Of a DNA stretch of 47,442 nt, positions 1 through 47,442 are shown one piece after another (the stretch's first letter is position 1; each line of letters begins with the position of its first letter). The translations under genes and the position numbers were made by a program. The DNA lies in the IMG/VR virus record IMGVR_UViG_2909298281_000005. The stretch is one strand, 5' to 3'. The notes below the pieces were generated by a model. The model was given only the letters and a program-made list of their open reading frames with translations, had not been told where the DNA came from and ran no database searches. The DNA comes from a virus (taxonomy: Duplodnaviria > Heunggongvirae > Uroviricota > Caudoviricetes).

Positions 1-1284
1 TTACAGACTTCTGGAAGGTTGCACAGCTCTTACAACACGCGGTTGATCTTCCGCAGCGTCTTCCAGCGCACTTAAATCACGGTCTTTCACTTCTGGCATT
101 TTCAGCGCAGAGATTAAACCAATCACTGAATATGCCATGATCATAATGGCGATCGGATACCAGGATTCCGTCATGGTGCAGAAAATACCCGCCAGGATAG
201 GACCAAAACCGGAAGCGATAAGACCACCAATTTCTTTAGAAATGGCCATCCGGGTAAAGCGGTTTTTACAGCCGAACATTTCTGCCATGGTAATGTTTTC
301 CAGAGCAAATAATCCCAGCACCGCACAGTTATGAATCACAATCAGTGCAACCATAATGGTGCTCGGGGCATAGCTTTTATCTACAATGATAGAAAGCATT
401 GGCCATGCCAGCACAATCGCGGAGGTATTCATAATAATATACGGGATCCGGCGACCAATTTTATCGGATAACCAACCAAGGAACGGAATGGTCATAAAGC
501 CGAGAATCGAACTAATCATCAATGCATCTGTTGGAATTGCTTTGTTAAACAATAACGTCTGCACTAAATAGCCTGCAAGGAAAGTCTGAATTAACCCGGA
601 GTTACCCGCCTGACCAAAACGCAGCCCTGTTGCCAGCCAGAAGGATTTGCTCTGGAACATGCTACCAGCAGGTGCAGGTTTTGCTGTGGGTTGGTTGCTG
701 TCATTAACCTTCTCAAAGACCGGGCTTTCTTTCAGATTCATACGTAACCAGATAGCAAAGACCATCACGACAACGCTCGCCAGGAACGGTATACGCCATC
801 CCCACGCCAGCAGTTCCTCTTTACTGAGAATGAAGAACATAAAGGCCCAGATTGCCGTTGCGCTCAAGGTTCCGCAGTTAGTTCCCATAGCTACAAATGA
901 GGAGATAATTCCGCGCTTACCTTTTGGTGCATATTCCGCCAGCATCGTACCGGCACCGGAAATTTCCGCACCTGCACCCAACCCCTGAATAATACGCAGC
1001 GTCACCAGCAAGATGGGGGCAAAAACACCAATCTGTGCATAGGTCGGTAACACACCAATTAAGGTGGTACAGATCCCCATCATGGTGATGGTAATAAAGA
1101 GCACTTTTTTACGCCCTATTCTGTCGCCCATTTTGCCGAAAATAAATGCTCCGACAATACGCGCCACATAACCTGCACCGTAGGTTCCCATTGCCAAAAT
1201 TAACGCCATTGCCGTTGATGATTCAGGAAAAAATATTTCATGAAACACTAACGCTGCGCCGAGCGAATATAACTGGAAATCCAT
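1..1284 (-). CDS. ydfJ: MFS family metabolite:H+ symporter, YdfJ-like; stop codon at 1-3; N-terminus looks shortened (begins inside the conserved YDF..Y...FFP region)
   Basis: 427-aa ORF with multiple hydrophobic segments and MFS-like motifs (GKMGDRIGRK, ...GWLSDKIGRR); ydfJ is recalled as the chromosomal gene flanking the Qin prophage in E. coli K-12. Confidence 0.75.
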   Translation of the reverse strand: MDFQLYSLGAALVFHEIFFPESSTAMALILAMGTYGAGYVARIVGAFIFGKMGDRIGRKKVLFITITMMGICTTLIGVLPTYAQIGVFAPILLVTLRIIQGLGAGAEISGAGTMLAEYAPKGKRGIISSFVAMGTNCGTLSATAIWAFMFFILSKEELLAWGWRIPFLASVVVMVFAIWLRMNLKESPVFEKVNDSNQPTAKPAPAGSMFQSKSFWLATGLRFGQAGNSGLIQTFLAGYLVQTLLFNKAIPTDALMISSILGFMTIPFLGWLSDKIGRRIPYIIMNTSAIVLAWPMLSIIVDKSYAPSTIMVALIVIHNCAVLGLFALENITMAEMFGCKNRFTRMAISKEIGGLIASGFGPILAGIFCTMTESWYPIAIMIMAYSVIGLISALKMPEVKDRDLSALEDAAEDQPRVVRAVQPSRSL

Positions 1285-1575
1285 AATTCACAGATGTTTT
1301 TTCTCATTCTGTGGTTTCCTTGGCGCTTTCTAGGTTTTTTCAGATAGTTACATTTTTTCAAAAGCATCCTGAGTTCGATCTTACTATCTATCTGTGGCCT
1401 ATTTCTGTCCCATATATGCCCCAAAAAACACCCCAACAGATAAGCAGTCTTTTCATGGTGTTACGCGTAAAAACAATAACGGCTTGAAATTATTCAATAC
1501 ACTCTCGAAAGTGCATCAGCCAACCGCAGAACGTTATTGCATACAACGTTTCTGCGGCATATCACGAAACGATTA

Positions 1576-1650
1576 CTTAATGACTGGGACTTCAGACCAC
1601 TCAATATCCGGTACAATTATGTATCAACGCAGTTTAACAACACCCTATAT
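1576..1650 (-). pseudogene. degenerate remnant of a tail fibre assembly (tfa) 3-prime end
   Basis: Minus-strand translation ...VPDIEWSEVPVIK-stop resembles the C-terminus of the intact Tfa at 3018 (...[12 protein letters not shown]-stop); in-frame stop upstream. Confidence 0.4.
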
Positions 1651-2000
1651 TTAATCCAGAGTGCGAGCAACGTTGTCCCTTTCTCTTTTGCACTCTTAAA
1701 ATATACGATTACTTAAGTGAAGATGCTTGACGAATCGCCAAATAAAACATCTTCATCAGCATAAAAATCCATATATGATTGAAAATTTAGCCATTAATAC
1801 CATTCATATCTGAATACTGACCTAATATGCTTACTAACCGTGAGAAATCTTTTTTTTCGACTTAATCACTCGAAATAAACTTTCACTCAATTGAAAACAA
1901 TTAGCTACAATTATCATTGCAATATCAAATCAAACATAACAACTTGCATAAATTCTCATGGGATACAGCATCAGTTGTGCCAAACACATAAGGAATTGAA

Positions 2001-2198
2001 ATGGACGGAGAAAGCTTTAACTTTGATGACAATGATATTGAATTTATTGCTTCAATGTATGCATCATGTAAATTATCAGGAAGTATCGCCCCCATAATGC
2101 ATATAATGGTTAGCATTCCAAGAAATAAGAAAAAACAATTCTACGAACGAGTTGAGCATTATTGTAGTTTATATTCCAATAAAAACCCACCTTCTTAA
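2001..2198 (+). CDS. hypothetical small protein (65 aa) in AT-rich segment
   Basis: ORF preceded by AAGGAA about 6 nt upstream of ATG; no recognisable domain. Confidence 0.25.
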   Translation: MDGESFNFDDNDIEFIASMYASCKLSGSIAPIMHIMVSIPRNKKKQFYERVEHYCSLYSNKNPPS

Positions 2199-2330
2199 AT
2201 TCGCTGCATTCTAGTGGATTCCATTAAGAAAACAATGACATACACTCAAACACATCTTTTTTATCAACAGTGAATTTCAGTTCGGCCAGTTTTTACCAGC
2301 TATTATAAAAATAGCATCCATATAAAGTTT

Positions 2331-2440
2331 TTACCCCACAGGTACAGCTGGCCATTCGATAACCGCACTAAGGAAGTGCCAACACGATATCAGCAAGACC
2401 CGATATTTCTTCCATGCCGCCAGCAACGATGTTAAGGTTA
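2331..2440 (-). pseudogene. remnant of a second tfa 3-prime end (about 35 codons)
   Basis: Minus-strand translation ...[32 protein letters not shown]-stop parallels the Tfa C-terminus ...[32 protein letters not shown]. Confidence 0.5.
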
Positions 2441-3017
2441 AATTAATTATAAAAAAATATATTATAATTCCATCTTCGCATTAAATTTTAACCTTTAATC
2501 TCCACACGGAACAAGTTGCATAGGTGACTATATTAGGAAAACTTATAACCACCAAAACATTTGCTTTGCAAACAAAAACAGTGACCATTGACTCTAAGAA
2601 AATTCCGATCTATTGTTAGGGTCATCAAAGTTACTTAACAGTATTCCGAAATGAAAATACAAAGCAAGCTAATTGTCTTATTAAACATTATCATTGCATT
2701 TATATTATTTGAGCTTTTAGCTCAAAAATTTGGTTTGAGTACATTATTTTAAAGCAAGATAAACAATATCGGGCACTCTAGTTTTTATAATTAACAATTA
2801 AACGTCCATAAAATGTTATTTACTTTTGTTCGCTATTGTCATATCTTAATATAGTGGCTTACGCCACTCTACTTTCATCACATTTTGTACGTTTATGTAC
2901 TCGCTATGAAGCTCTTTCATGGCGATTTTTTATTCTTAATCCAAGAACATACTCCCTACCTATAGCAAAATCACTTTTTGAACAAAAGAATAACGTATTT
3001 AGGTAATCATTACGAAT

Positions 3018-3599
3018 TTACCCTATAGGTGCTACTGGCCATTCAATATCCGGTGCAGTTGTTGTATTAACACGGTTCAGCAACACCCGATACTTTTTCC
3101 AGGCTTCCAGCAACGAGTTTTCTTCCTCCGTTGCGATTTCCAGATCTACAGCATCCTGAAGTGGCGCAATATGCTCATTCGCTGCCTGCATCAGGCTGTT
3201 TTTTGTTTCTTCCGCCTCCCGGATCCGGAATAGTTTTTCTGCTTCTGCATCTTTCACCCAGGCTGTGCCGTTCCACTTCTGATATTCCCCTCCCGGCGAC
3301 AACCAGGTAACATTTTCCGGTAACGAGCCAAGTTCAGAAATAAATAACGCGTCGCCGGAAGCCACGTCATAGACGGTTTTTCCCCGATGATCTTCAACGA
3401 GATGCCACGATGCCTCATCACTGTTGAAAACAGCCACAAAGCCAGCCGGAATATCTGGCGGTGCAATATCGGTACTGTTTGCTGGCAGACCTGTATGAGG
3501 CGGAATATATGCGTCACCTTCACCAATAAATTCATTAGTTCCGGCCAGCAGATTATAAATTTTTATGGTCCGTGGTTGTTCACTCATTCTGAATGCCAT
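3018..3599 (-). CDS. tfa: tail fibre assembly protein Tfa
   Basis: 193-aa ORF directly downstream of stf; translation closely resembles lambda Tfa as recalled. Confidence 0.85.
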
Positions 3600-6500
3600 T
3601 ATGCAAGCCTCACAATATAGTTAAATGCGATGTTTTTGACGGTGTTTTCCGCGTTACCAGCAGCGTTAACGGTGATGGTGTGTCCATGTGAACCAATCGC
3701 AACGGAGTGCGTGTGTGCACCAATACCGACAGTATGTGCGTGTGCACCTGCAGATGCTGCTGTGCCGGACAGTGAGTGGCTATGGTTACCATCTGTACTG
3801 GTATTAGCTAACGCCCCCGTAGACATACCTACTGAGCCTTGCACACCCCAGGTATTTTGACCTGAGCTTGTATAACCATATTGATAAGTATCTTTAAAAA
3901 CACTGGGGTTAAATCGACGGCCATCTCTATGGCTGTGATTACCAGCTGCATTCGTGCTGCCACTTAAACTATGGGTATGCGCACCAGTGTTATTCGTGGA
4001 TTTAGTGCCGTAATCAAACGACGATGTGGTTTTCGTCCCCAAATCAGTACTGGATGCGCTGGCGCTGTGGGTATGCGATTTTATGCCGTCCTGTTCCTGA
4101 GACAATACGGCACGACCACTGGCGGGCTTGCCCTTAATCGTCCAGCCACGCATATCAGGGATCACGCCTGACGGATAAGCGGCTGCAAGTTTCGGGTAGG
4201 CAGATTTGTCAAAAGTCTGCCCCTGCATCAGGGCATAACCAGACGGAACGGTATCTGATGGCCACGGGATTGGTGCGCCGACTGGGTAGCTTTCTGGTGG
4301 AAGATTTTTCGAGGTATAAACTTCTGCCCAGTCTTCCTCAAAACCATAACCGTCTCTTGAAGAACGGTAGAACAGACCACCATTTCTGTAATGCGCCTTC
4401 ATCTGCAAGGTCCGGCAACTTCCGACTCCGGTATAGAAGTTAACCAGAATATAGCTGTCGCCAGAGCGGGTGACATTATAAGCGCCTGATTCGGCATTCC
4501 AGGGAACGCCACCATCCGCATCGGCATATGTATCCGTTGCCCTTCTGGCAAAAGCAGCCACATGCGCGGCGGTTAAAGTAATATCTTTGGAACCATCAAA
4601 CTCAACACCAGAAACCCGTCTTGGCGTTTGCAGCTTTGTTGCTGTTAATGCATTACCGTTCAGACTTGCGGACAGTTTGGTTCCAATAACCAGTTCGCCG
4701 GTTGCGTTATCAATAGCAAACGGTCTTAATGTATTCCAGCCACCATAAACATCACCTTGATTGGTAAGCAGCAGGTAAGTTTTAGCGCCATCATTACGCC
4801 ATAATGCCCCATACTCCCCACCTATCATTCGAATCTGATTACCACCACGCGCTACAATTTCGTCTGTGGCAAAAAGTTTTTTGCACGACAAGTTATCGTT
4901 AACGATTAACGAATGAGACTCATAAAAACCACGCCCACTCTTAAAATCAAGGATAACGTCCGCCGCGATACATTCAGTCGCCGGATTTGTTGCCCCAAAC
5001 TTATAGGTCGTATCATTAACAACGAGATCAGTACCAGGTGCGGATATTGACAGGCCATCTTCGATAAACGCAAAAACAGGGAAAGCAGCGCCATCAACAT
5101 AGAACACAGAGCGCAAATCATCGCCCTTATTACTCATCATTATTGAGTGGATGGCTCGTTCATTGTTTTGATATTGCCAGAACATTCCATAAGCATAACG
5201 CCCCCTGTCAGTCCAGCCACCAGGCATAACAAATCCGTTAAACTCGCAGTTATTCATCGGATCGCCTGCGGTTCGCGTTGCCGTGGTGATAATGACCCTT
5301 GATGCCAGTTCGCTTACTGAGCCAGCAGAACGCATAACAACAACAGGGTAATATTTTCCAGATGTTGCACCTGCAGGAGCGTTAACCCGCACATAACGCA
5401 TACCACGCTTATCAGCAAAGTCTGTTTTACTGACCGCGTTAATGTTGTTCAGGAAGCGTCCCTTATCGGGTATATCAGCGCCGTTCTGGTCTTTCTGCAG
5501 ACGTTTCTCTGCATTGTCATAGGCTGATTTTACTGCCTTTGGCGTTGCCGCCAGCGTTTCAGACGTACTGTTGGTCGCACTGCTGAGCTGTACTATCCCC
5601 TTTTTCGTCGTACTTGCATCCTCAAGCGCCACGGCGGATGCAATATCCTCTGCCCGTTTTGCCGCTGTCTCGGCGCGCGTTGCCGCGGATTCCGCCGTAC
5701 TTTTGCTCTGTGCTGCCGCCGTCGCACTGCCAGCTGCCTCTGTCGCCTTCGTGGATGCTGTCGTGGCGCTGCCCTTCGCTGCGGACGCTTGTCTGGTCGC
5801 CTCATCTTTTGAAGCAGACGCCGATGATGCCGATGACGCCGCCGAACTGGCGGACGATGCGGCAGCCGTTTTTGAGGATTCTGCGCTGGTTTCCGACGCT
5901 TTCGCGTTCGTCTCGGATGTCTTCGCTGCGGAAGCAGACCTCGCTGCTGCGCTGGCCTGTTCAGTGGCTTCGCCAGCCTTCGTTGTGGCTGTTGAAGCAG
6001 ACGATGCGGCGCTTTCTGCCGATTTTCCGGCGGCGCTAGCACTGGCTGAGGCCTGCCCGGCACTTGTTGACGCTGCACTGGCAGACGACGCAGCCGCTGT
6101 TTTTGAGCCTGCCGCAGCCGAGGCGCTCTGTCCCGCTGCCGTTTCAGAAGACCTGGCGTTTGTCTCAGACGTCTTTGCCGCCTTCGCGGAATTGCCTGCC
6201 GCCGTTGCCGAGGAAGCGGCACTACTGGCGCTTGATGATGCGTTCGTTTCTGATGATTTCGCTGCCTCTTTTGAGGCCGCCGCATCCCGGGCTGAGGTGG
6301 CTGCTTCTGACGCCTTCGTGGTCGCGGCGGATGCAGAAGTGGCTGCTGATTGTTGTGACGCTGCCGCATTCGTTTCTGACGTTTTCGCCGCAGCGGCACT
6401 GGTAGCTGCCGCGCTTTTTGAGGACTCTGCAGCAGCAGCACTTTTCGATGCTTCACTGGCCTTTGTTGATGCCGTTCCTGCGCTGGAAGATGCTGACTGA

Positions 6501-10700: not shown

Positions 10701-11208
10701 CCACCACCACCGAGGCCAGATACTGCGAGGTGGTTTTGCCCTTAATGGTGATGTCTTTTTCCGTCACCCAGCCACCATTACGCTGTATCTGAACCAGCAG
10801 GCGAACTTCCGACGGATTCCGGTCCCCCTTTGAGGTGGTTTCCACCAGTGCCTGCACACCGAAGGTAAAGCGCAGTCGGTCGATGTTTGCCGACGTGATG
10901 GCGCGGGTGATCGGCGTGTCGTATTTCACTTCCGTACCCAACACCGTCTCGGAGCCGGAGGATTCAAATCCCTCCGGCGGAGTCTGCTCCTGCTCACCAG
11001 CCCGGAACACCACCGTGACACCGGCGATGTTGGTATTCCCATCACTGTCCAGCACCGGCGTACTGTTCAGCAGCACGCTTTTTAATCCATCCACCGGACC
11101 TTCAATCGGCCCTTCACTGATGGCATCAATCACACTCAGCAACTGCGTGGACTTCAGGTTGTCCTTCGCTTCGCGCGGGGTATGCCCCTTACTGCTTCCT
11201 TTACCCAT
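7729..11208 (-). CDS. J: tail tip / host specificity protein J
   Basis: 1159-aa ORF downstream of I; lambda J-like size and position. Confidence 0.9.
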
Positions 11209-26172: not shown

Positions 26173-26469
26173 CTGGCAGGTGAAAATCAGGTTTATTTAT
26201 ATATTTCAATTAATTGCAAACTAGTCTAATGACAGGGAGAAAAAAATATTGTACAGCTGAAGAGAGAAATAACTTTTAATTATCAATAAATTACCAAACA
26301 TGCTGCCGCCGCCATGGAAATGCAAAAACTAGCCTTTTTCCGCGACGCTCCCGCCCCGTGGCAGGACACACTGCCGGGAGGACCCATTAAAAACTGCTAA
26401 GCTGGGCTCGTTATGGGTAACCGGCTCATTTAAACCGTCTGGTCTGTTTCCTCCGGCTCTACAAAAATA

Positions 26470-27147
26470 ATGTCCATCATTTTTAATGGACACTATCGTA
26501 TGAAACACCGGACCTGGATCACTGAAGCTTTACGTCTTCACTTTGAAGAACATTTACCCCGGGTTGTGGCCGGGCGTCGCCTGGGTGTACCAAAATCAAC
26601 AGTTTGTAGTATGTTCGTGCGCTTTCGGAGAGCTGGCCTTTCGTGGCCTTTGCCCGCAGGCATGTCGGAGCAGGAACTTGATGCCTGCCTTTACGGACAA
26701 TTTTCCACGGTACCAGTCGTACGTCCTGAAAGCACCGTTATATCCGAAGCCCCCGTGGTAAAAAAACGTCCCCGGCGGCCCAACTTCCCTTATGAGTTTA
26801 AAATCGCCTTAGTGGAGCAGTCACTGCAGCCCGGAGCCTGTGTGGCGCAGATCGCCCGGGAAAACGGAATCAACGATAACCTGCTCTTCAACTGGCGCCA
26901 TCAATACCGGAAAGGTGGCCTGCTGCCTTCCGGAAAAAATATGCCGGCACTGCTTCCCGTGACGTTAACGCCGGAGCCGGATAATAAAATCCCGGCCCCC
27001 GCACAGGAACCAGAGCAGATAAATACACCGTCCGACAGTCTGTGTTGTGAGCTGGTTCTGCCGGCCGGAACTCTCAGGCTTAAAGGTAAACTGACGCCGG
27101 CGTTATTACAGACACTTATCCGCGAAATAAAAGGGAGCAGCCACTGA
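26470..27147 (+). CDS. IS66 accessory protein (orf1/TnpA-like); true start may be internal
   Basis: First ORF of the IS; HTH-like segments. Confidence 0.65.
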   Translation: MSIIFNGHYRMKHRTWITEALRLHFEEHLPRVVAGRRLGVPKSTVCSMFVRFRRAGLSWPLPAGMSEQELDACLYGQFSTVPVVRPESTVISEAPVVKKRPRRPNFPYEFKIALVEQSLQPGACVAQIARENGINDNLLFNWRHQYRKGGLLPSGKNMPALLPVTLTPEPDNKIPAPAQEPEQINTPSDSLCCELVLPAGTLRLKGKLTPALLQTLIREIKGSSH

Positions 27148-27494
27148 TGATATCTCTCCCTGCAGGTTCGCGTATCTGGCTGGTTGCAGGTATCACCGAT
27201 ATGCGAAATGGCTTTAACGGCCTGGCATCAAAAGTTCAGAACGTCCTGAAGGATGACCCGTTCTCCGGACACCTGTTCATCTTCCGCGGACGCCGGGGTG
27301 ACCAGATAAAAGTGTTGTGGGCTGACAGTGACGGACTGTGCCTCTTCACCAAACGCCTGGAGCGGGGCCGCTTCGTCTGGCCAGTCACCCGTGACGGCAA
27401 GGTGCACCTTACTCCGGCTCAGTTATCCATGCTTCTTGAAGGTATCAACTGGAAGCACCCGAAACGAACGGAACGCGCTGGAATCCGCATATAA
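27147..27494 (+). CDS. IS66 orf2 (TnpB-like)
   Basis: 115-aa ORF MISLPAGSRIWLVAGITDMRNGFNGL... typical of IS66 orf2. Confidence 0.85.
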   Translation: MISLPAGSRIWLVAGITDMRNGFNGLASKVQNVLKDDPFSGHLFIFRGRRGDQIKVLWADSDGLCLFTKRLERGRFVWPVTRDGKVHLTPAQLSMLLEGINWKHPKRTERAGIRI

Positions 27495-27513
27495 CCCGTT
27501 GTAAAGTGAGGAT

Positions 27514-29085
27514 ATGGACACCTCACTTGCTCATGAGAACGCCCGCCTGCGGGCACTGTTGCAGACGCAACAGGACACCATCCGCCAGATGGCTGAATAC
27601 AACCGCCTGCTCTCACAGCGGGTGGCGGCTTATGCTTCCGAAATCAACCGGCTGAAGGCGCTGGTTGCGAAACTGCAACGTATGCAGTTCGGTAAAAGCT
27701 CAGAAAAACTTCGTGCAAAAACCGAACGACAGATACAGGAAGCACAGGAGCGAATCAGCGCACTTCAGGAAGAAATGGCGGAAACGCTGGGTGAGCAATA
27801 TGACCCGGTACTGCCATCCGCCCTGCGCCAGTCTTCAGCCCGTAAACCGTTACCGGCCTCACTTCCCCGTGAAACCCGGGTTATCCGGCCGGAAGAGGAA
27901 TGCTGTCCTGCCTGTGGTGGTGAACTCAGTTCTCTGGGATGTGATGTGTCAGAGCAACTGGAGCTTATCAGCAGCGCCTTTAAGGTTATCGAAACACAAC
28001 GTCCGAAACTGGCCTGTTGCCGGTGCGACCATATCGTGCAGGCACCAGTACCTTCAAAACCCATTGCACGCAGTTATGCCGGAGCGGGGCTTCTTGCCCA
28101 TGTTGTCAGCGGGAAATATGCAGACCATCTGCCGTTATACCGCCAGTCAGAAATATACCGTCGTCAGGGAGTGGAGCTGAGCCGTGCCACACTGGGGCGC
28201 TGGACAGGTGCTGTTGCTGAACTGCTGGAGCCGCTGTATGACGTCCTGCGCCAGTATGTGCTGATGCCCGGTAAAGTCCATGCTGATGATATCCCCGTCC
28301 CGGTCCAGGAGCCGGGCAGCGGTAAAACCCGGACAGCCCGGCTGTGGGTCTACGTCCGTGATGACCGTAACGCCGGTTCACAGATGCCCCCGGCGGTCTG
28401 GTTCGCGTACAGTCCGGACCGGAAAGGTATCCATCCACAAAATCACCTGGCCGGTTACAGCGGTGTGCTTCAGGCCGATGCTTACGGTGGTTACCGGGCG
28501 TTATACGAATCCGGCAGAATAACGGAAGCCGCGTGTATGGCTCATGCCCGGAGAAAAATCCACGATGTGCATGCAAGAGCGCCCACCTACATCACCACGG
28601 AAGCCCTGCAGCGTATCGGTGAACTGTATGCCATCGAGGCAGAGGTCCGGGGCTGTTCAGCAGAACAGCGTCTGGCGGCAAGAAAAGCCAGAGCCGCGCC
28701 ACTGATGCAGTCACTGTATGACTGGATACAGCAACAGATGAAAACACTGTCGCGTCACTCAGATACGGCAAAAGCGTTCGCATACCTGCTGAAACAGTGG
28801 GATGCACTGAACGTGTACTGCAGTAATGGCTGGGTGGAAATCGACAACAACATCGCAGAGAACGCCTTACGGGGAGTGGCCGTAGGCCGGAAAAACTGGA
28901 TGTTCGCGGGTTCCGACAGCGGTGGTGAACATGCGGCGGTGTTGTACTCGCTGATCGGCACATGCCGTCTGAACAATGTGGAGCCAGAAAAGTGGCTGCG
29001 TTACGTCATTGAACATATCCAGGACTGGCCGGCAAACCGGGTACGCGATCTGTTGCCCTGGAAAGTTGATCTGAGCTCTCAGTAA
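27514..29085 (+). CDS. IS66 family transposase (orf3)
   Basis: 523-aa ORF with N-terminal coiled-coil, CPACGG zinc-finger-like motif and DDE-type core. Confidence 0.9.
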
Positions 29086-38887: not shown

Positions 38888-39582
38888 ATGTTAGAACCAC
38901 CAAAGAGTTATAATGAAATGTTGCCTATGCTCCATAAGGCGACTTTTATTACTACATTTATATTTTACCTATCATTAGTCATTTATGGCTACATGCCATT
39001 GGTTGGCATTAATGCCAAGTATATCCCCCCGTTAAAGACTACGAGGAATTTATTAAATGGATATTAACCTTTGGCATATTACCAATTGCATCTTCAGTTT
39101 TTTGGTCAGTAATTAGTGGAGCTTTAGATCTACATAATAATGTAGCAAAAATTATTGGAATAAGGAAGATGTGGGATAGTCATTTAATTATTAAACCATT
39201 AGCAAAAATTGCAGGCGTTACGAGAAAATTAACTACTGATGAATCTCACAAGGTAATGAGTAAACTGTATTACCCAGAAGTTAAAGAGTTAAAAGACAAA
39301 CATTACGTTGAACTTTTCTGGAACAAAGTTTATTACTTTTGGGTTTTCTTTGAACATACAGTAATCGCATTTGTTACTATTTTAATAATAAGTATCGCCA
39401 AATTAACAAATATATTCTCTGTTACTGGCTCTTTAATTAATCTTTGGTTGTGGATTATTTCTCTTGTCGCATTTGACTTCCTTATTTTCATAGCATCAGT
39501 TAAACCAAGAACAGAAAGCCAAGTAAGACAAATACCTGATAGCAAAATAAAAGAATTCTTTAACAATAACAATATTTTTTAA
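38888..39582 (+). CDS. predicted 4-TM membrane protein, reading frame broken at a C6 run (39025-39030); appears as two track ORFs
   Basis: Track ORFs 38876..39067 and 39169..39582 are in adjacent frames; the second frame is open and hydrophobic from 39013; adding one C restores about 231 aa; GGAGAG upstream of ATG 38888. Confidence 0.5.
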
Positions 39583-40562: not shown

Positions 40563-41545
40563 TTATAAATCAACAACATTTAGTGTTATATCAATATTAT
40601 TTAGCCTTGCAATCTCTGATGAATCACTTGCTATTTTAGCTTTTAATTTATCAATATTAATCATATCTTCATGGCTTATATAAACCATATCACCTTGGTT
40701 AACTTTAGATTTGTTCACTATGGCTTGAATAACAGACAAATCATCCATTACACCTCTCATAAATTTCACCATGCTTTGATCTTTGAAGTCAGATATCGAT
40801 TTTGAACGTTGCTTACGTTGAATTGTTCCATTACACCTCTCATAAATTTCACCATGCTTTGATCTTTGAAGTCAGATATCGATTTTGAACGTTGCTTACG
40901 TTGAATTGTTCCTTTTGTAATTACTTCATTAATTTCTTTTAAACCAGTGAGCATATCAGACAGACTGCCTTCGCAACTCATCCGATGTTTTATTGCATTG
41001 CGATTAATAATATTGAGTATAATTTCGAGTGAATCTTTATCACTCCATGGATGTAATGATGTATAATCATGATGGCGTCGAATGGCGTCAATCATATCCT
41101 GGACCATATCTTCATCTGCTTTATCGCAAAGTTCATTCACGAAATAGCTGGGGTCGATTATTTTACAATAACTTGGAGTTAGGTATCTTGAGGCTTTACA
41201 AAAACCAAAAATATATAAAGTAGAGTATTTATCTTTCAGACTCTCTCCTATTTCATTTGCTTCCTCAAAAGATTCGATAGTTTTTTTAATTTTTGCTGGA
41301 CTTGCATTCGTAGTAACTTGAACTGCTATCATGTTTTTATTATCAGCTAAATCAATGGCGGGAAAATTAACTTTAATCTGATTCATGTTTACCAGTTCAC
41401 CCATTTTCAGCGCGCGAAACATAAAGATGGTCAATGACTCAATTATTCTTTCCATGTCATGAAAGCCTGCCTGTTTGCGTTGCGCGATATAAAGCTGGAG
41501 TAGTGCAATATCACTCTGTAAGTTTCTAATAAGTGGATCAATCAT
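40563..41545 (-). pseudogene. defence-island-like protein (about 300 aa) disrupted by an 83-bp tandem duplication
   Basis: Track ORFs 40766..41545 and 40563..40772 share the duplicated peptide MVKFMRGVM...; N-terminal motif ...NQIKVNFPAIDLADNKNMIAVQVTT... Confidence 0.55.
40745..40912. repeat. perfect tandem duplication, 2 x 83 bp
   Basis: Unit CCATTACACCTCTCATAAATTTCACCATGCTTTGATCTTTGAAGTCAGATATCGATTTTGAACGTTGCTTACGTTGAATTGTT appears twice head-to-tail. Confidence 0.85.
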
Positions 41546-45717: not shown

Positions 45718-45906
45718 ATGAAAACGTTATTACCAAACGTTAATACGTCTGAAGGTTGTTTTGAAATTGGTGTCACTATCAGTAACCCAGTATTTACTGA
45801 AGATGCCATTAACAAGAGAAAACAAGAACGGGAGCTATTAAATAAAATATGCATTGTTTCAATGCTGGCTCGTTTACGTCTGATGCCAAAAGGATGTGCA
45901 CAATGA
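45718..45906 (+). CDS. dicB: cell division inhibitor DicB (62 aa)
   Basis: MKTLLPNVNTSEGCFEIGVTISNPVFTEDAINKRKQERELLNKICIVSMLARLRLMPKGCAQ; GAGGA upstream. Confidence 0.8.
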   Translation: MKTLLPNVNTSEGCFEIGVTISNPVFTEDAINKRKQERELLNKICIVSMLARLRLMPKGCAQ

Positions 45907-45968
45907 ATTCAGCATTTGTGCTTGTTCTGACAGTTTTTCTTGTTTCCGGAGAGCCAGTTGATATTGCA
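45903..45968 (+). pseudogene. ydfD: ydfD truncated after 22 codons by IS1 insertion
   Basis: MNSAFVLVLTVFLVSGEPVDIA then IS1 left end at 45969; start overlaps dicB stop (ATGA). Confidence 0.6.
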
Positions 45969-46023
45969 GGTGATGCTGCCAACTTACTGATTTAGTGTAT
46001 GATGGTGTTTTTGAGGTGCTCCA

Positions 46024-46299
46024 GTGGCTTCTGTTTCTATCAGCTGTCCCTCCTGTTCAGCTACTGACGGGGTGGTGCGTAACGGCAAAAGCACCGCCGG
46101 ACATCAGCGCTATCTCTGCTCTCACTGCCGTAAAACATGGCAACTGCAGTTCACTTACACCGCTTCTCAACCCGGTACGCACCAGAAAATCATTGATATG
46201 GCCATGAATGGCGTTGGATGCCGGGCAACTGCCCGCATTATGGGCGTTGGCCTCAACACGATTTTACGTCACTTAAAAAACTCAGGCCGCAGTCGGTAA
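46024..46299 (+). CDS. insA: IS1 InsA
   Basis: [42 protein letters not shown]... Confidence 0.85.
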
Positions 46300-46721
46300 C
46301 CTCGCGCATACAGCCGGGCAGTGACGTCATCGTCTGCGCAGAAATGGACGAACAGTGGGGATACGTCGGGGCTAAATCGCGCCAGCGCTGGCTGTTTTAC
46401 GCGTATGACAGGCTCCGGAAGACGGTTGTTGCGCACGTATTCGGTGAACGCACTATGGCGACGCTGGTGCGTCTTATGAGCCTGCTGTCACCCTTTGACG
46501 TGGTGATATGGATGACGGATGGCTGGCCGCTGTATGAATCCCGCCTGAAGGGAAAGCTGCACGTAATCAGCAAGCGATATACGCAGCGAATTGAGCGGCA
46601 TAACCTGAATCTGAGGCAGCACCTGGCACGGCTGGGACGGAAGTCGCTGTCGTTCTCAAAATCGGTGGAGCTGCATGACAAAGTCATCGGGCATTATCTG
46701 AACATAAAACACTATCAATAA
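46218..46721 (+). CDS. insB: IS1 InsB frame (expressed as InsAB' by -1 frameshift at the A-run TTAAAAAACTC)
   Basis: Track ORF in -1 frame overlapping insA; A6C slippery run visible near 46273-46280. Confidence 0.8.
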
Positions 46722-46736
46722 GTTGGAGTCATTACC

Positions 46737-47049
46737 AAAGGCGTCTATAACGTTAAAAATGTGATTGTTGCCGATCGCATTGATGAACGACTGGAAAAAG
46801 CGAAAGAGAGCGGGGCAGACTGGGCGATTAATAACAGCCAGACACCGCTTGGCGAGATTTTCGCTGAAAAAGGCATCAAGCCGACATTAATTATCGATGC
46901 GGCTTGTCATCCTTCTATCCTGAAAGAGGCCGTAACGCTGGCTTCTCCAGCGGCACGTATTGTATTGATGGGCTTCTCCAGTGAACCGTCTGAAGTGATT
47001 CAGCAAGGAATTACCGGAAAAGAACTCTCTATTTTCTCTTCACGCTTAA
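46737..47049 (+). pseudogene. internal fragment of a Zn-dependent (MDR-type) dehydrogenase gene trapped between two IS1 copies (possibly rspB-like)
   Basis: In-frame from IS1 end to next IS1 end: ...VIVADRIDERLEKAKESGADWAINNSQ...IIDAACHPSILKEAVTLASPAARIVLMGFSSEPSEV...; no start or stop of its own. Confidence 0.55.
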
Positions 47050-47442
47050 GGTAATGACTCCAACTTATTGATAGTGTTTTATGTTCAGATAATGCCCGAT
47101 GACTTTGTCATGCAGCTCCACCGATTTTGAGAACGACAGCGACTTCCGTCCCAGCCGTGCCAGGTGCTGCCTCAGATTCAGGTTATGCCGCTCAATTCGC
47201 TGCGTATATCGCTTGCTGATTACGTGCAGCTTTCCCTTCAGGCGGGATTCATACAGCGGCCAGCCATCCGTCATCCATATCACCACGTCAAAGGGTGACA
47301 GCAGGCTCATAAGACGCACCAGCGTCGCCATAGTGCGTTCACCGAATACGTGCGCAACAACCGTCTTCCGGAGCCTGTCATACGCGTAAAACAGCCAGCG
47401 CTGGCGCGATTTAGCCCCGACGTATCCCCACTGTTCGTCCAT
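47050..47442 (-). mobile_element. second IS1 copy, inverted, truncated by the window edge
   Basis: Starts GGTAATGACTCCAACTTATTGATAGTG (reverse complement of IS1 right end); sequence identical to copy 1 where compared. Confidence 0.85.
47065..47442 (-). CDS. insB: IS1 InsB (partial, runs off window)
   Basis: Track ORF identical in translation to insB of the first copy. Confidence 0.8.

Follow-up and report, generated by a model that had tools for sequence, protein, structure and literature searches.

What removed the integrase end of a lambdoid prophage that has its head, tail and terminase genes, as well as cargo that includes SMEK-domain and methyltransferase genes? The question is raised by the last part of the stretch of DNA analysed here (47,442 nt, referred to below as the window), in which the prophage gene ydfD runs into an IS1 element, a short piece of a dehydrogenase gene and a second IS1. 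In comparison with intact and rearranged relatives, this arrangement is very probably the scar of a multi-step IS1-driven rearrangement at the right (int-proximal) end of a Qin-site lambdoid prophage in the ETEC strain D181. Below, we describe the anatomy of the scar, the DNA that is missing from the locus, the recurrence of its junctions in other strains, and the series of events that might have produced it.

Source of the window and scope of the comparison

The window is an exact match to the record CP024252.1 (GCA_002741275.1), with 0 mismatches over an overlap of 10,682 nt, and its position 1 corresponds to position 3,133,072 of that record, in which the break discussed here falls at about 3,178,900-3,181,000. 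CP024252 belongs to ETEC strain D181 (O182:H21, ST4493, phylogroup B1, diarrhoea origin; strain table in PMC8281228), and the chromosome is a closed contig of 4.89 Mb. For D181, the sequence examined comprised the window and the 9.6 kb beyond it (57 kb), and "deleted" is used here in the sense of absent from this locus; formally, the missing DNA may have been relocated rather than lost. Comparisons were made with 5,426 complete E. coli genomes other than that of D181. For the four junctions, each query against this set was made of 100 nt of flank and 40 nt of IS1.

A complete Qin-site prophage would lie between ydfJ and ynfP/rspB and have the 11-bp attachment core at both ends. The core, GAAATCCATAA, is found at both annotated Qin boundaries in K-12 and also between int and rspB in CRE10, an intact relative. 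In D181, it occurs once in the window (Table 1) and not in the 9.6 kb beyond. At this locus, attL is present beside ydfJ, and attR is absent from the window and the 9.6 kb that follow.

Table 1. Features of the D181 prophage and of the break at its right end, in window coordinates.
Feature	Position	Strand	Description
attL core	1276..1286	.	11 bp, Qin-site prophage; overlaps the ydfJ start codon
dicB	45718..45906	+	intact; Pfam DicB; 100% identical to CRE10 up to the breakpoint
ydfD codons 1-22	45903..45968	+	match to CRE10 ydfD; ends at the IS1 left terminus
IS1 copy 1	45969..46736	+	complete, 768 bp; IRL joins ydfD, IRR joins rspB nt 541
insA, IS1 copy 1	46024..46299	+	Pfam Zn_ribbon_InsA and HTH_Tnp_IS1
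insB reading frame, IS1 copy 1	46218..46721	+	Pfam DDE_Tnp_IS1, E = 1e-77
rspB relic	46737..47049	+	313 bp; rspB nt 541-853, residues 181-284 of 339
IS1 copy 2	47050..47442 (window end)	-	inverted; IRR joins rspB nt 853

Anatomy of the break

Read from left to right, the order is ydfD up to codon 22, an IS1 from IRL to IRR, rspB from nt 541 to 853, an IS1 from IRR to IRL, and tqsA from nt 80 onward, the whole IS1-rspB'-IS1 unit measuring 1.85 kb. On the prophage side, dicB is the last complete gene ahead of the break, and its stop codon overlaps the ATG of ydfD. The ydfD remnant gives a weak match to Pfam DUF1482, in agreement with a tblastn search using the CRE10 YdfD protein. Its frame continues into the IS1 as far as a stop codon at 45993-45995, which results in a 30-aa fusion ORF. 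The G at 45969 can be assigned to either ydfD or IS1, so that the end of ydfD is nt 66 or 67. In K-12, ydfD is annotated as a lysis protein; the D181 version is cut to 22 codons. Over the 8 kb to the left of the break, the D181 prophage shows 99.9-100% identity to prophages in 144 complete genomes.

The original prediction, made from the letters of the window, had ydfD cut after codon 22 by a complete IS1, and this was confirmed. The first copy is 768 bp long, carries terminal inverted repeats (GGTGATGCTGCC... and ...GGAGTCATTACC; the element begins GGTGATGCTGCCAACTTACTGAT and its right end is ...GTTGGAGTCATTACC), and encodes insA/insB' with a DDE transposase and an A6C frameshift motif, AAAAAAC, read from the sequence at approximately 46275-46281. 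The D181 element is 98.6-99.7% identical to annotated IS1A/IS1B elements. The second IS1 was correctly called as inverted. In CP024252.1 it is complete (768 bp) and reaches the equivalent of window position 47817. The search for its far end beyond the window, which the original prediction had proposed, found its IRL abutting tqsA nt 80. The two copies are reverse complements of each other, identical at 768 of 768 positions, as would also be expected if every IS1 copy in D181 were alike.

The 313 bp between the two elements had been read as an in-frame internal piece of an MDR-type dehydrogenase, possibly rspB, and the BLAST-type comparison bears this out. The fragment is 99-100% identical to annotated rspB, and at least 80% of it is covered in 4,899 of the 5,426 complete E. 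coli genomes; in thousands of them, 312 or 313 of its 313 positions agree (99.7-100% identity). It is open in one frame and matches Pfam ADH_zinc_N (PF00107); its 97-aa ORF is recorded in exactly one contig, CP024252.1. The relic reads in the sense direction on the + strand, which is also the strand of ydfD, whereas native rspB is antisense to ydfD in both K-12 and CRE10. The relic is therefore inverted. As it retains only residues 181-284 of 339, the relic is non-functional.

Ancestral layout and DNA missing from the locus

In CRE10, dicB and ydfD are followed by a 2.47-kb exonuclease gene, xis, int and attR, then by rspB and rspA on the opposite strand. Beyond rspA lie ynfA-ynfM, speG, mlc, clcB, asr, ydgD, mdtIJ, ydgV and tqsA. 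In K-12, the genes around the decayed Qin prophage are laid out in the same way. The statement in the original prediction that rspB lies just past the int end of Qin thus holds for K-12 as well as for the near-identical intact prophage of CRE10.

When compared by BLAST with the CRE10 locus (L004), D181 resolves into three colinear blocks. The left flank extends up to L004 position 589 and thereby ends at ydfD nt 66 or 67; the relic corresponds to positions 5584 down to 5272, in reverse; and the right flank picks up at position 26201, which is tqsA nt 80. Two segments are missing between these blocks. The first (positions 590-5271, 4,682 bp) holds the rest of ydfD, the exonuclease gene, xis, int, attR and the last 167 nt of rspB. 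The second (positions 5585-26200, 20,616 bp) runs from the first 540 nt of rspB and from rspA through the first 79 nt of tqsA, and takes with it ynfA-M, speG, mlc, clcB, asr, ydgD and mdtIJ. In the CRE10 record NZ_CP034404.1, the two segments occupy positions 977089-981770 and 982084-1002699, respectively. In CRE10, the whole interval from ydfD codon 22 to tqsA nt 79 measures 25.6 kb. Relative to CRE10, every breakpoint, at all four novel joints, lies exactly at an IS1 terminus.

DNA of either missing segment gave no match in the 57 kb of D181 available, and neither homologues of int, xis, the exonuclease gene and rspA nor the attR core were found in the window or in the 9.6 kb beyond. An integrase gene and an attachment site directly past the second IS1 would have spoken against the original prediction; what lies there is tqsA from nt 80 and then pntBA. 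Further on, pntB, pntA, ydgH, ydgI, folM, ydgC and rstAB have their normal order and orientation. Given that attL is kept and that int, xis and attR are absent at the locus, it is reasonable to infer that the prophage is locked in place, as originally proposed, and would not excise by its own site-specific system.

Target duplications around the IS1 copies

The 9-mers flanking copy 1 are GATATTGCA and AAAGGCGTC, and those flanking copy 2 are CACGCTTAA and TCCGTTTTG. Comparison of these 9-mers revealed no target-site duplication, direct or inverted, around either IS1 copy or around the pair. For copy 1 this is what the original prediction had reported. Since the flanking 9-mers differ for both copies, neither IS1 is a simple insertion, and their identity as IS1 is unaffected. 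A pair of reverse-complementary 9-mers, the mark of one duplicative inversion, was likewise absent among the four flanks; such absence is expected if later deletions took the partner copies, and it is therefore uninformative on the mechanism. A 777-nt inverted repeat was also considered as a target duplication and was rejected, as it consists of the 768-nt IS1 and a chance extension of 8 nt on the inner sides of the elements (AAAGGCGT versus TTAAGCGT, matching at 5 of 8 positions).

These flanks also bear on whether the unit could have arrived as a composite transposon, that is, whether IS1-rspB'-IS1 formed in rspB and then moved as a unit to its present position. Such a transposon would have a passenger between inverted IS1 copies whose outer IRL ends are intact, as is seen here. 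However, no 8-9 bp duplication surrounds the unit, whose flanks are GATATTGCA and TCCGTTTTG, and since these flanks lie 25.6 kb apart in CRE10 they do not represent a single target site. Moreover, native rspB is absent from its own locus instead of being retained there. The missing duplication and the non-contiguous flanks refute such a move as the sole event, and we consider this explanation barely credible.

Recurrence of the junctions in other strains

Among the 5,426 complete E. coli genomes, no record covered at least 80% of a query with the whole ydfD-IS1-rspB'-IS1 structure, which rules out the arrangement as a shared lineage marker within this set. The structure is known from a single public assembly, with no second sample of the same structure. 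An assembly artefact, in which real IS1 junctions were misjoined and the DNA between IS1 copies collapsed, would fit with its presence in one assembly only and with the highly repeated nature of IS1 in E. coli (a median of 21 places per genome match an IS1-containing query). Yet the 1.85-kb unit is short enough to be spanned by single long reads, the chromosome is closed, and the four junctions are all clean IS1 termini, two of which match real junctions elsewhere. An artefact is thus highly improbable.

Both junctions of copy 1 are private to D181. Neither the joint between ydfD and IRL nor the joint between IRR and rspB nt 541 has a single-piece match in the 5,426 complete genomes, and both are absent from the assembly index except for the source record. 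Matches in two pieces were obtained for each of these queries, but they reflect an IS1 located nearby at another base and were not counted as junction matches. The 30-aa ydfD'-IS1 fusion ORF is also recorded in D181 only.

Copy 2 has canonical joints between IS1 and target on both sides, and these sites recur in other strains. The joint between rspB nt 853 and IRR is base-identical in FAM21845 and in Z226-5/-6. In Z226-5, IS1 sits at this very base of rspB, oriented as in D181, as a simple insertion flanked by a 9-bp target-site duplication (CACGCTTAA). This element and the D181 copy are 5 nt apart, and beyond it come the remainder of rspB, an intact int and xis, and the exonuclease gene. FAM21845 has the same joint between rspB and IRR, with IRL joined to ydfV' inside a K-12-type Qin, so that an adjacent deletion has reached into the prophage in this strain; 7 nt separate its IS1 from the D181 copy. 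In other genomes, rspB carries IS1 at several further positions.

The joint between IRL and tqsA nt 80 is base-identical in SCZE5, ECJXMCRH7 and XH993. In SCZE5, tqsA is interrupted at this base by a simple IS1 insertion, which has a 9-bp target-site duplication (TCCGTTTTG). The SCZE5 element and the D181 copy disagree at 42 of 768 positions, and the tqsA flank has diverged by 1.2%. Shared ancestry of this junction is therefore unlikely, and the data point to independent use of the tqsA target in D181 and SCZE5. It is conceivable, though rather doubtful, that rspB nt 845-853 and tqsA nt 80-88 are true IS1 hot spots, determined by sequence or structure, on which different variants of the element have landed independently and in one orientation in lineages that are unrelated. 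In that case, the chromosome bordering the Qin attachment site on the right would be prone to repeated breakage, with IS1 disabling prophages there time and again and removing host genes, speG and mlc among them.

States resembling intermediates exist in other strains, namely in Z226-5, FAM21845 and SCZE5.

Proposed series of events

IS1 is 768 bp long, generates duplications of 8-9 bp and has been observed to transpose replicatively within the chromosome (PMC12428005). In intramolecular target-primed transposition, attack in cis leads to an adjacent deletion of the DNA between the IS end and the target, and after attack in trans the DNA is inverted and two IS copies of opposite orientation remain; for adjacent deletion as well as inversion, IS1/Tn9 is given as a typical case (PMC9330008). 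Working out the geometry of a duplicative inversion gives the order X-(L IS R)-inverted segment-(R IS L)-Y, with the right ends facing inward. D181 has the same order, with IRL-IS1-IRR, the inverted rspB nt 541-853, and IRR-IS1-IRL. As for adjacent deletions, the endpoints of the missing segments lie on IS termini, and the distal endpoints are otherwise unrelated sites.

The original prediction attributed the loss of the prophage arm to an IS1-mediated deletion or inversion. The loss itself stands, as int, xis and attR are gone from the locus. No single deletion or inversion suffices, however: in the ancestor the relic is contiguous with neither outer flank, which rejects any model of one deletion or one duplicative inversion. 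The best reading is that at least four events were needed, including an insertion, a duplicative inversion or IS1-IS1 recombination, and adjacent deletions. From what is directly observed, namely the anatomy, the breakpoints, the DNA missing at the locus and the recurrence of two junctions, we infer both the mechanism and an order of events. The likeliest mechanism would be adjacent deletions driven by the IS1 transposase together with one inversion step, a class of event to which the structure can be assigned with high confidence.

The series would most likely have started with a simple IS1 insertion in rspB nt 845-853, a site also struck in other strains. One DNA-inverting event would then have left two inverted IS1 copies, either by replicative intramolecular transposition or by recombination with an inverted IS1 in tqsA, and two IS1 adjacent deletions starting exactly at IS1 termini would have come last. 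Several four-event routes give exactly the observed product. In one of them (route A), IS1 would have inserted into rspB nt 845-853, as in Z226-5; an adjacent deletion would have extended from its IRL as far as codon 22 of ydfD, much as in the FAM21845 allele; the element would next have undergone a local duplicative inversion with rspB nt 541 as the target; and finally an adjacent deletion from the IRL of the new copy would have reached the tqsA site. In another (route B), 20.9 kb would have been flipped after the same initial insertion, either by a duplicative inversion with tqsA as the target or by recombination between the element and an inverted IS1 that had inserted there independently, and the third and fourth steps would have been two adjacent deletions from the two ends of the left copy.

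As all target duplications lack their partner, the sequence does not separate replicative transposition from homologous recombination between independent IS1 copies. In a pathway relying on homologous recombination only, IS1 would first have had to insert independently at four places, namely ydfD, rspB nt 541, rspB nt 853 and tqsA. RecA would then have mediated two deletions, each between directly oriented copies, and the remaining inverted copies would have recombined once to flip the DNA between them. The end product of this pathway is identical to the observed structure, simple insertions at rspB nt 853 and tqsA nt 80 exist in other strains, and IS1 strikes rspB at several further positions. 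On the other hand, it takes seven events (four insertions and three recombinations) versus four by transposition, and an IS1 at the ydfD or the rspB nt 541 position is present in 0 of the 5,426 genomes. We therefore regard recombination as the only process at work as unlikely, and favour transposase-driven adjacent deletions with one inversion step. Once formed, the 313-bp segment between the identical inverted IS1 copies might still be flipping by recombination in living populations.

The inversion of the relic, the further 20.6 kb missing, the requirement for at least four events and the two recurrent junctions were all missed by the original prediction.

Implications for D181

The scar explains why the fairly complete lambdoid prophage of D181 has no integrase, excisionase or attR. 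Approximately 20 kb of core chromosome are missing from their normal place, including rspAB, the ynfEFGH selenate reductase genes, speG, mlc, asr and mdtIJ. This could matter for the phenotype, and the 20.6 kb missing at this locus may be more important in that respect than the truncation of the prophage. The class of event is known and ordinary: IS1 behaves here in its classical way, and the Qin attachment site is itself a classical locus. This one scar, seen in D181 only, has apparently not been described before. Beyond strain-level annotation its significance is small, although it provides a clean worked example of nested IS1 rearrangements. A by-product of mild interest is the reuse, base for base, of two IS1 target sites in unrelated strains.

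Comparison with known systems

Tn1681 of ETEC is a composite IS1 transposon with inverted IS1 arms. D181 resembles such transposons in having two inverted IS1 copies that flank a short passenger. In contrast to them, the D181 unit has no flanking target duplication and its flanks are non-contiguous in empty-site genomes, and for these reasons the structure is not an inserted transposon.

With the K-12 Qin prophage, D181 shares the site between ydfJ and ynfP/rspB, the 11-bp att core, the flanking genes, and the dicC/dicA-ydfABC-dicB-ydfD module. Both prophages are defective and IS-damaged at the int end; in K-12, ydfE, insD7 and intQ are pseudogenes beside IS2E. The D181 prophage is, however, a far more complete lambdoid element with different cargo on its replication and immunity side. 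Whereas Qin of K-12 decayed in place, the int end of the D181 prophage was wholly removed by IS1, together with attR and host DNA.

The closest alleles at the rspB junction are those of FAM21845 and Z226-5, in which IRR is joined to rspB nt 853 at the identical base. In FAM21845, as in D181, a deletion from the other IS1 end reaches into a Qin-site prophage, but that allele has one IS1, a single deletion and no inversion. Z226-5 differs from D181 in being a simple insertion with its target-site duplication intact and int/xis kept.

Although it is a compound of several events, with an inverted segment whittled down to 313 bp, and is known from sequence, the D181 scar follows the classical pattern of adjacent deletion and duplicative inversion by IS1/Tn9. 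The breakpoints lie at IS1 termini, and no target duplication has been kept. As in IS1 adjacent deletions, each deletion starts at an IS end and stops at a distal site that varies. As in IS1/Tn9 duplicative inversion, an inverted segment is enclosed by identical IS1 copies of opposite orientation, whose like ends point towards it.

Recurrent IS1 junctions and the adjoining chromosome

Two junctions of the IS1 scar in the ETEC D181 prophage, at nt 845-853 of rspB and nt 80-88 of tqsA, recur in unrelated strains, base-exact and with IS1 in the same orientation (FAM21845 and Z226-5/-6 for rspB; SCZE5, ECJXMCRH7, and XH993 for tqsA). Since the IS1 variants at these recurrent sites differ from the D181 IS1 by 5, 7 and 42 nt, these shared junctions suggest that the two sequences are IS1 target hot spots. 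Several further strains carry IS1 at other places within rspB or just past it.

When the D181 chromosome past the window was compared with CRE10, a relative with an intact prophage arm, 20.6 kb of core chromosome was found to be missing at this locus. The missing genes include rspA, ynfEFGH, dmsD, speG, mlc, clcB, asr, ydgD, and mdtIJ; the first 79 nt of tqsA at the locus are also gone.

Coordinates of the features (L003, D181 source record; L002 and L004, CRE10; L007, Z226-5)
Feature	Window	L003	Other stretches
IS66-family element	26470-29085 (three ORFs)
Hypothetical gene	38888-39582	2128-2822	L002 12889-13584
Tandem duplication	40744-40912
rspB nt 845-853	47041-47049
tqsA nt 80-88		11058-11066
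Missing core chromosome		11058 onward	L004 5585-26200
Z226-5 deletion			L007 12271-12275; L004 256-873

Other lesions of the prophage

An IS66-family element, whose three consecutive ORFs match the Pfam families HTH_Tnp_1, TnpB_IS66, and DDE_Tnp_IS66, lies between the DUF1441 gene, which adjoins the large terminase gene, and the following prophage gene. CRE10 has no IS at this position, and the element is a second IS strike on the D181 prophage.

A hypothetical gene, intact at 696 bp in CRE10, is called in D181 as two ORFs of 59 and 137 aa; the alignment of the two over this gene shows one gap, suggestive of a frameshift. Within the SMEK-domain gene of the D181 prophage, an 83-bp unit is repeated perfectly in tandem (2.0 copies, 100% match). 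In CRE10 the unit is single and the gene is intact at 900 bp; in D181, where gene calling splits it into one piece of 61 aa and another of 259 aa, it appears to be disrupted.

In the related prophage of strain Z226-5, a 618-bp deletion without any IS, defined against CRE10, takes out dicB and ydfD and cuts off the exonuclease gene's 5' end. The toxic-gene module truncated by IS1 in D181 was lost independently in Z226-5.
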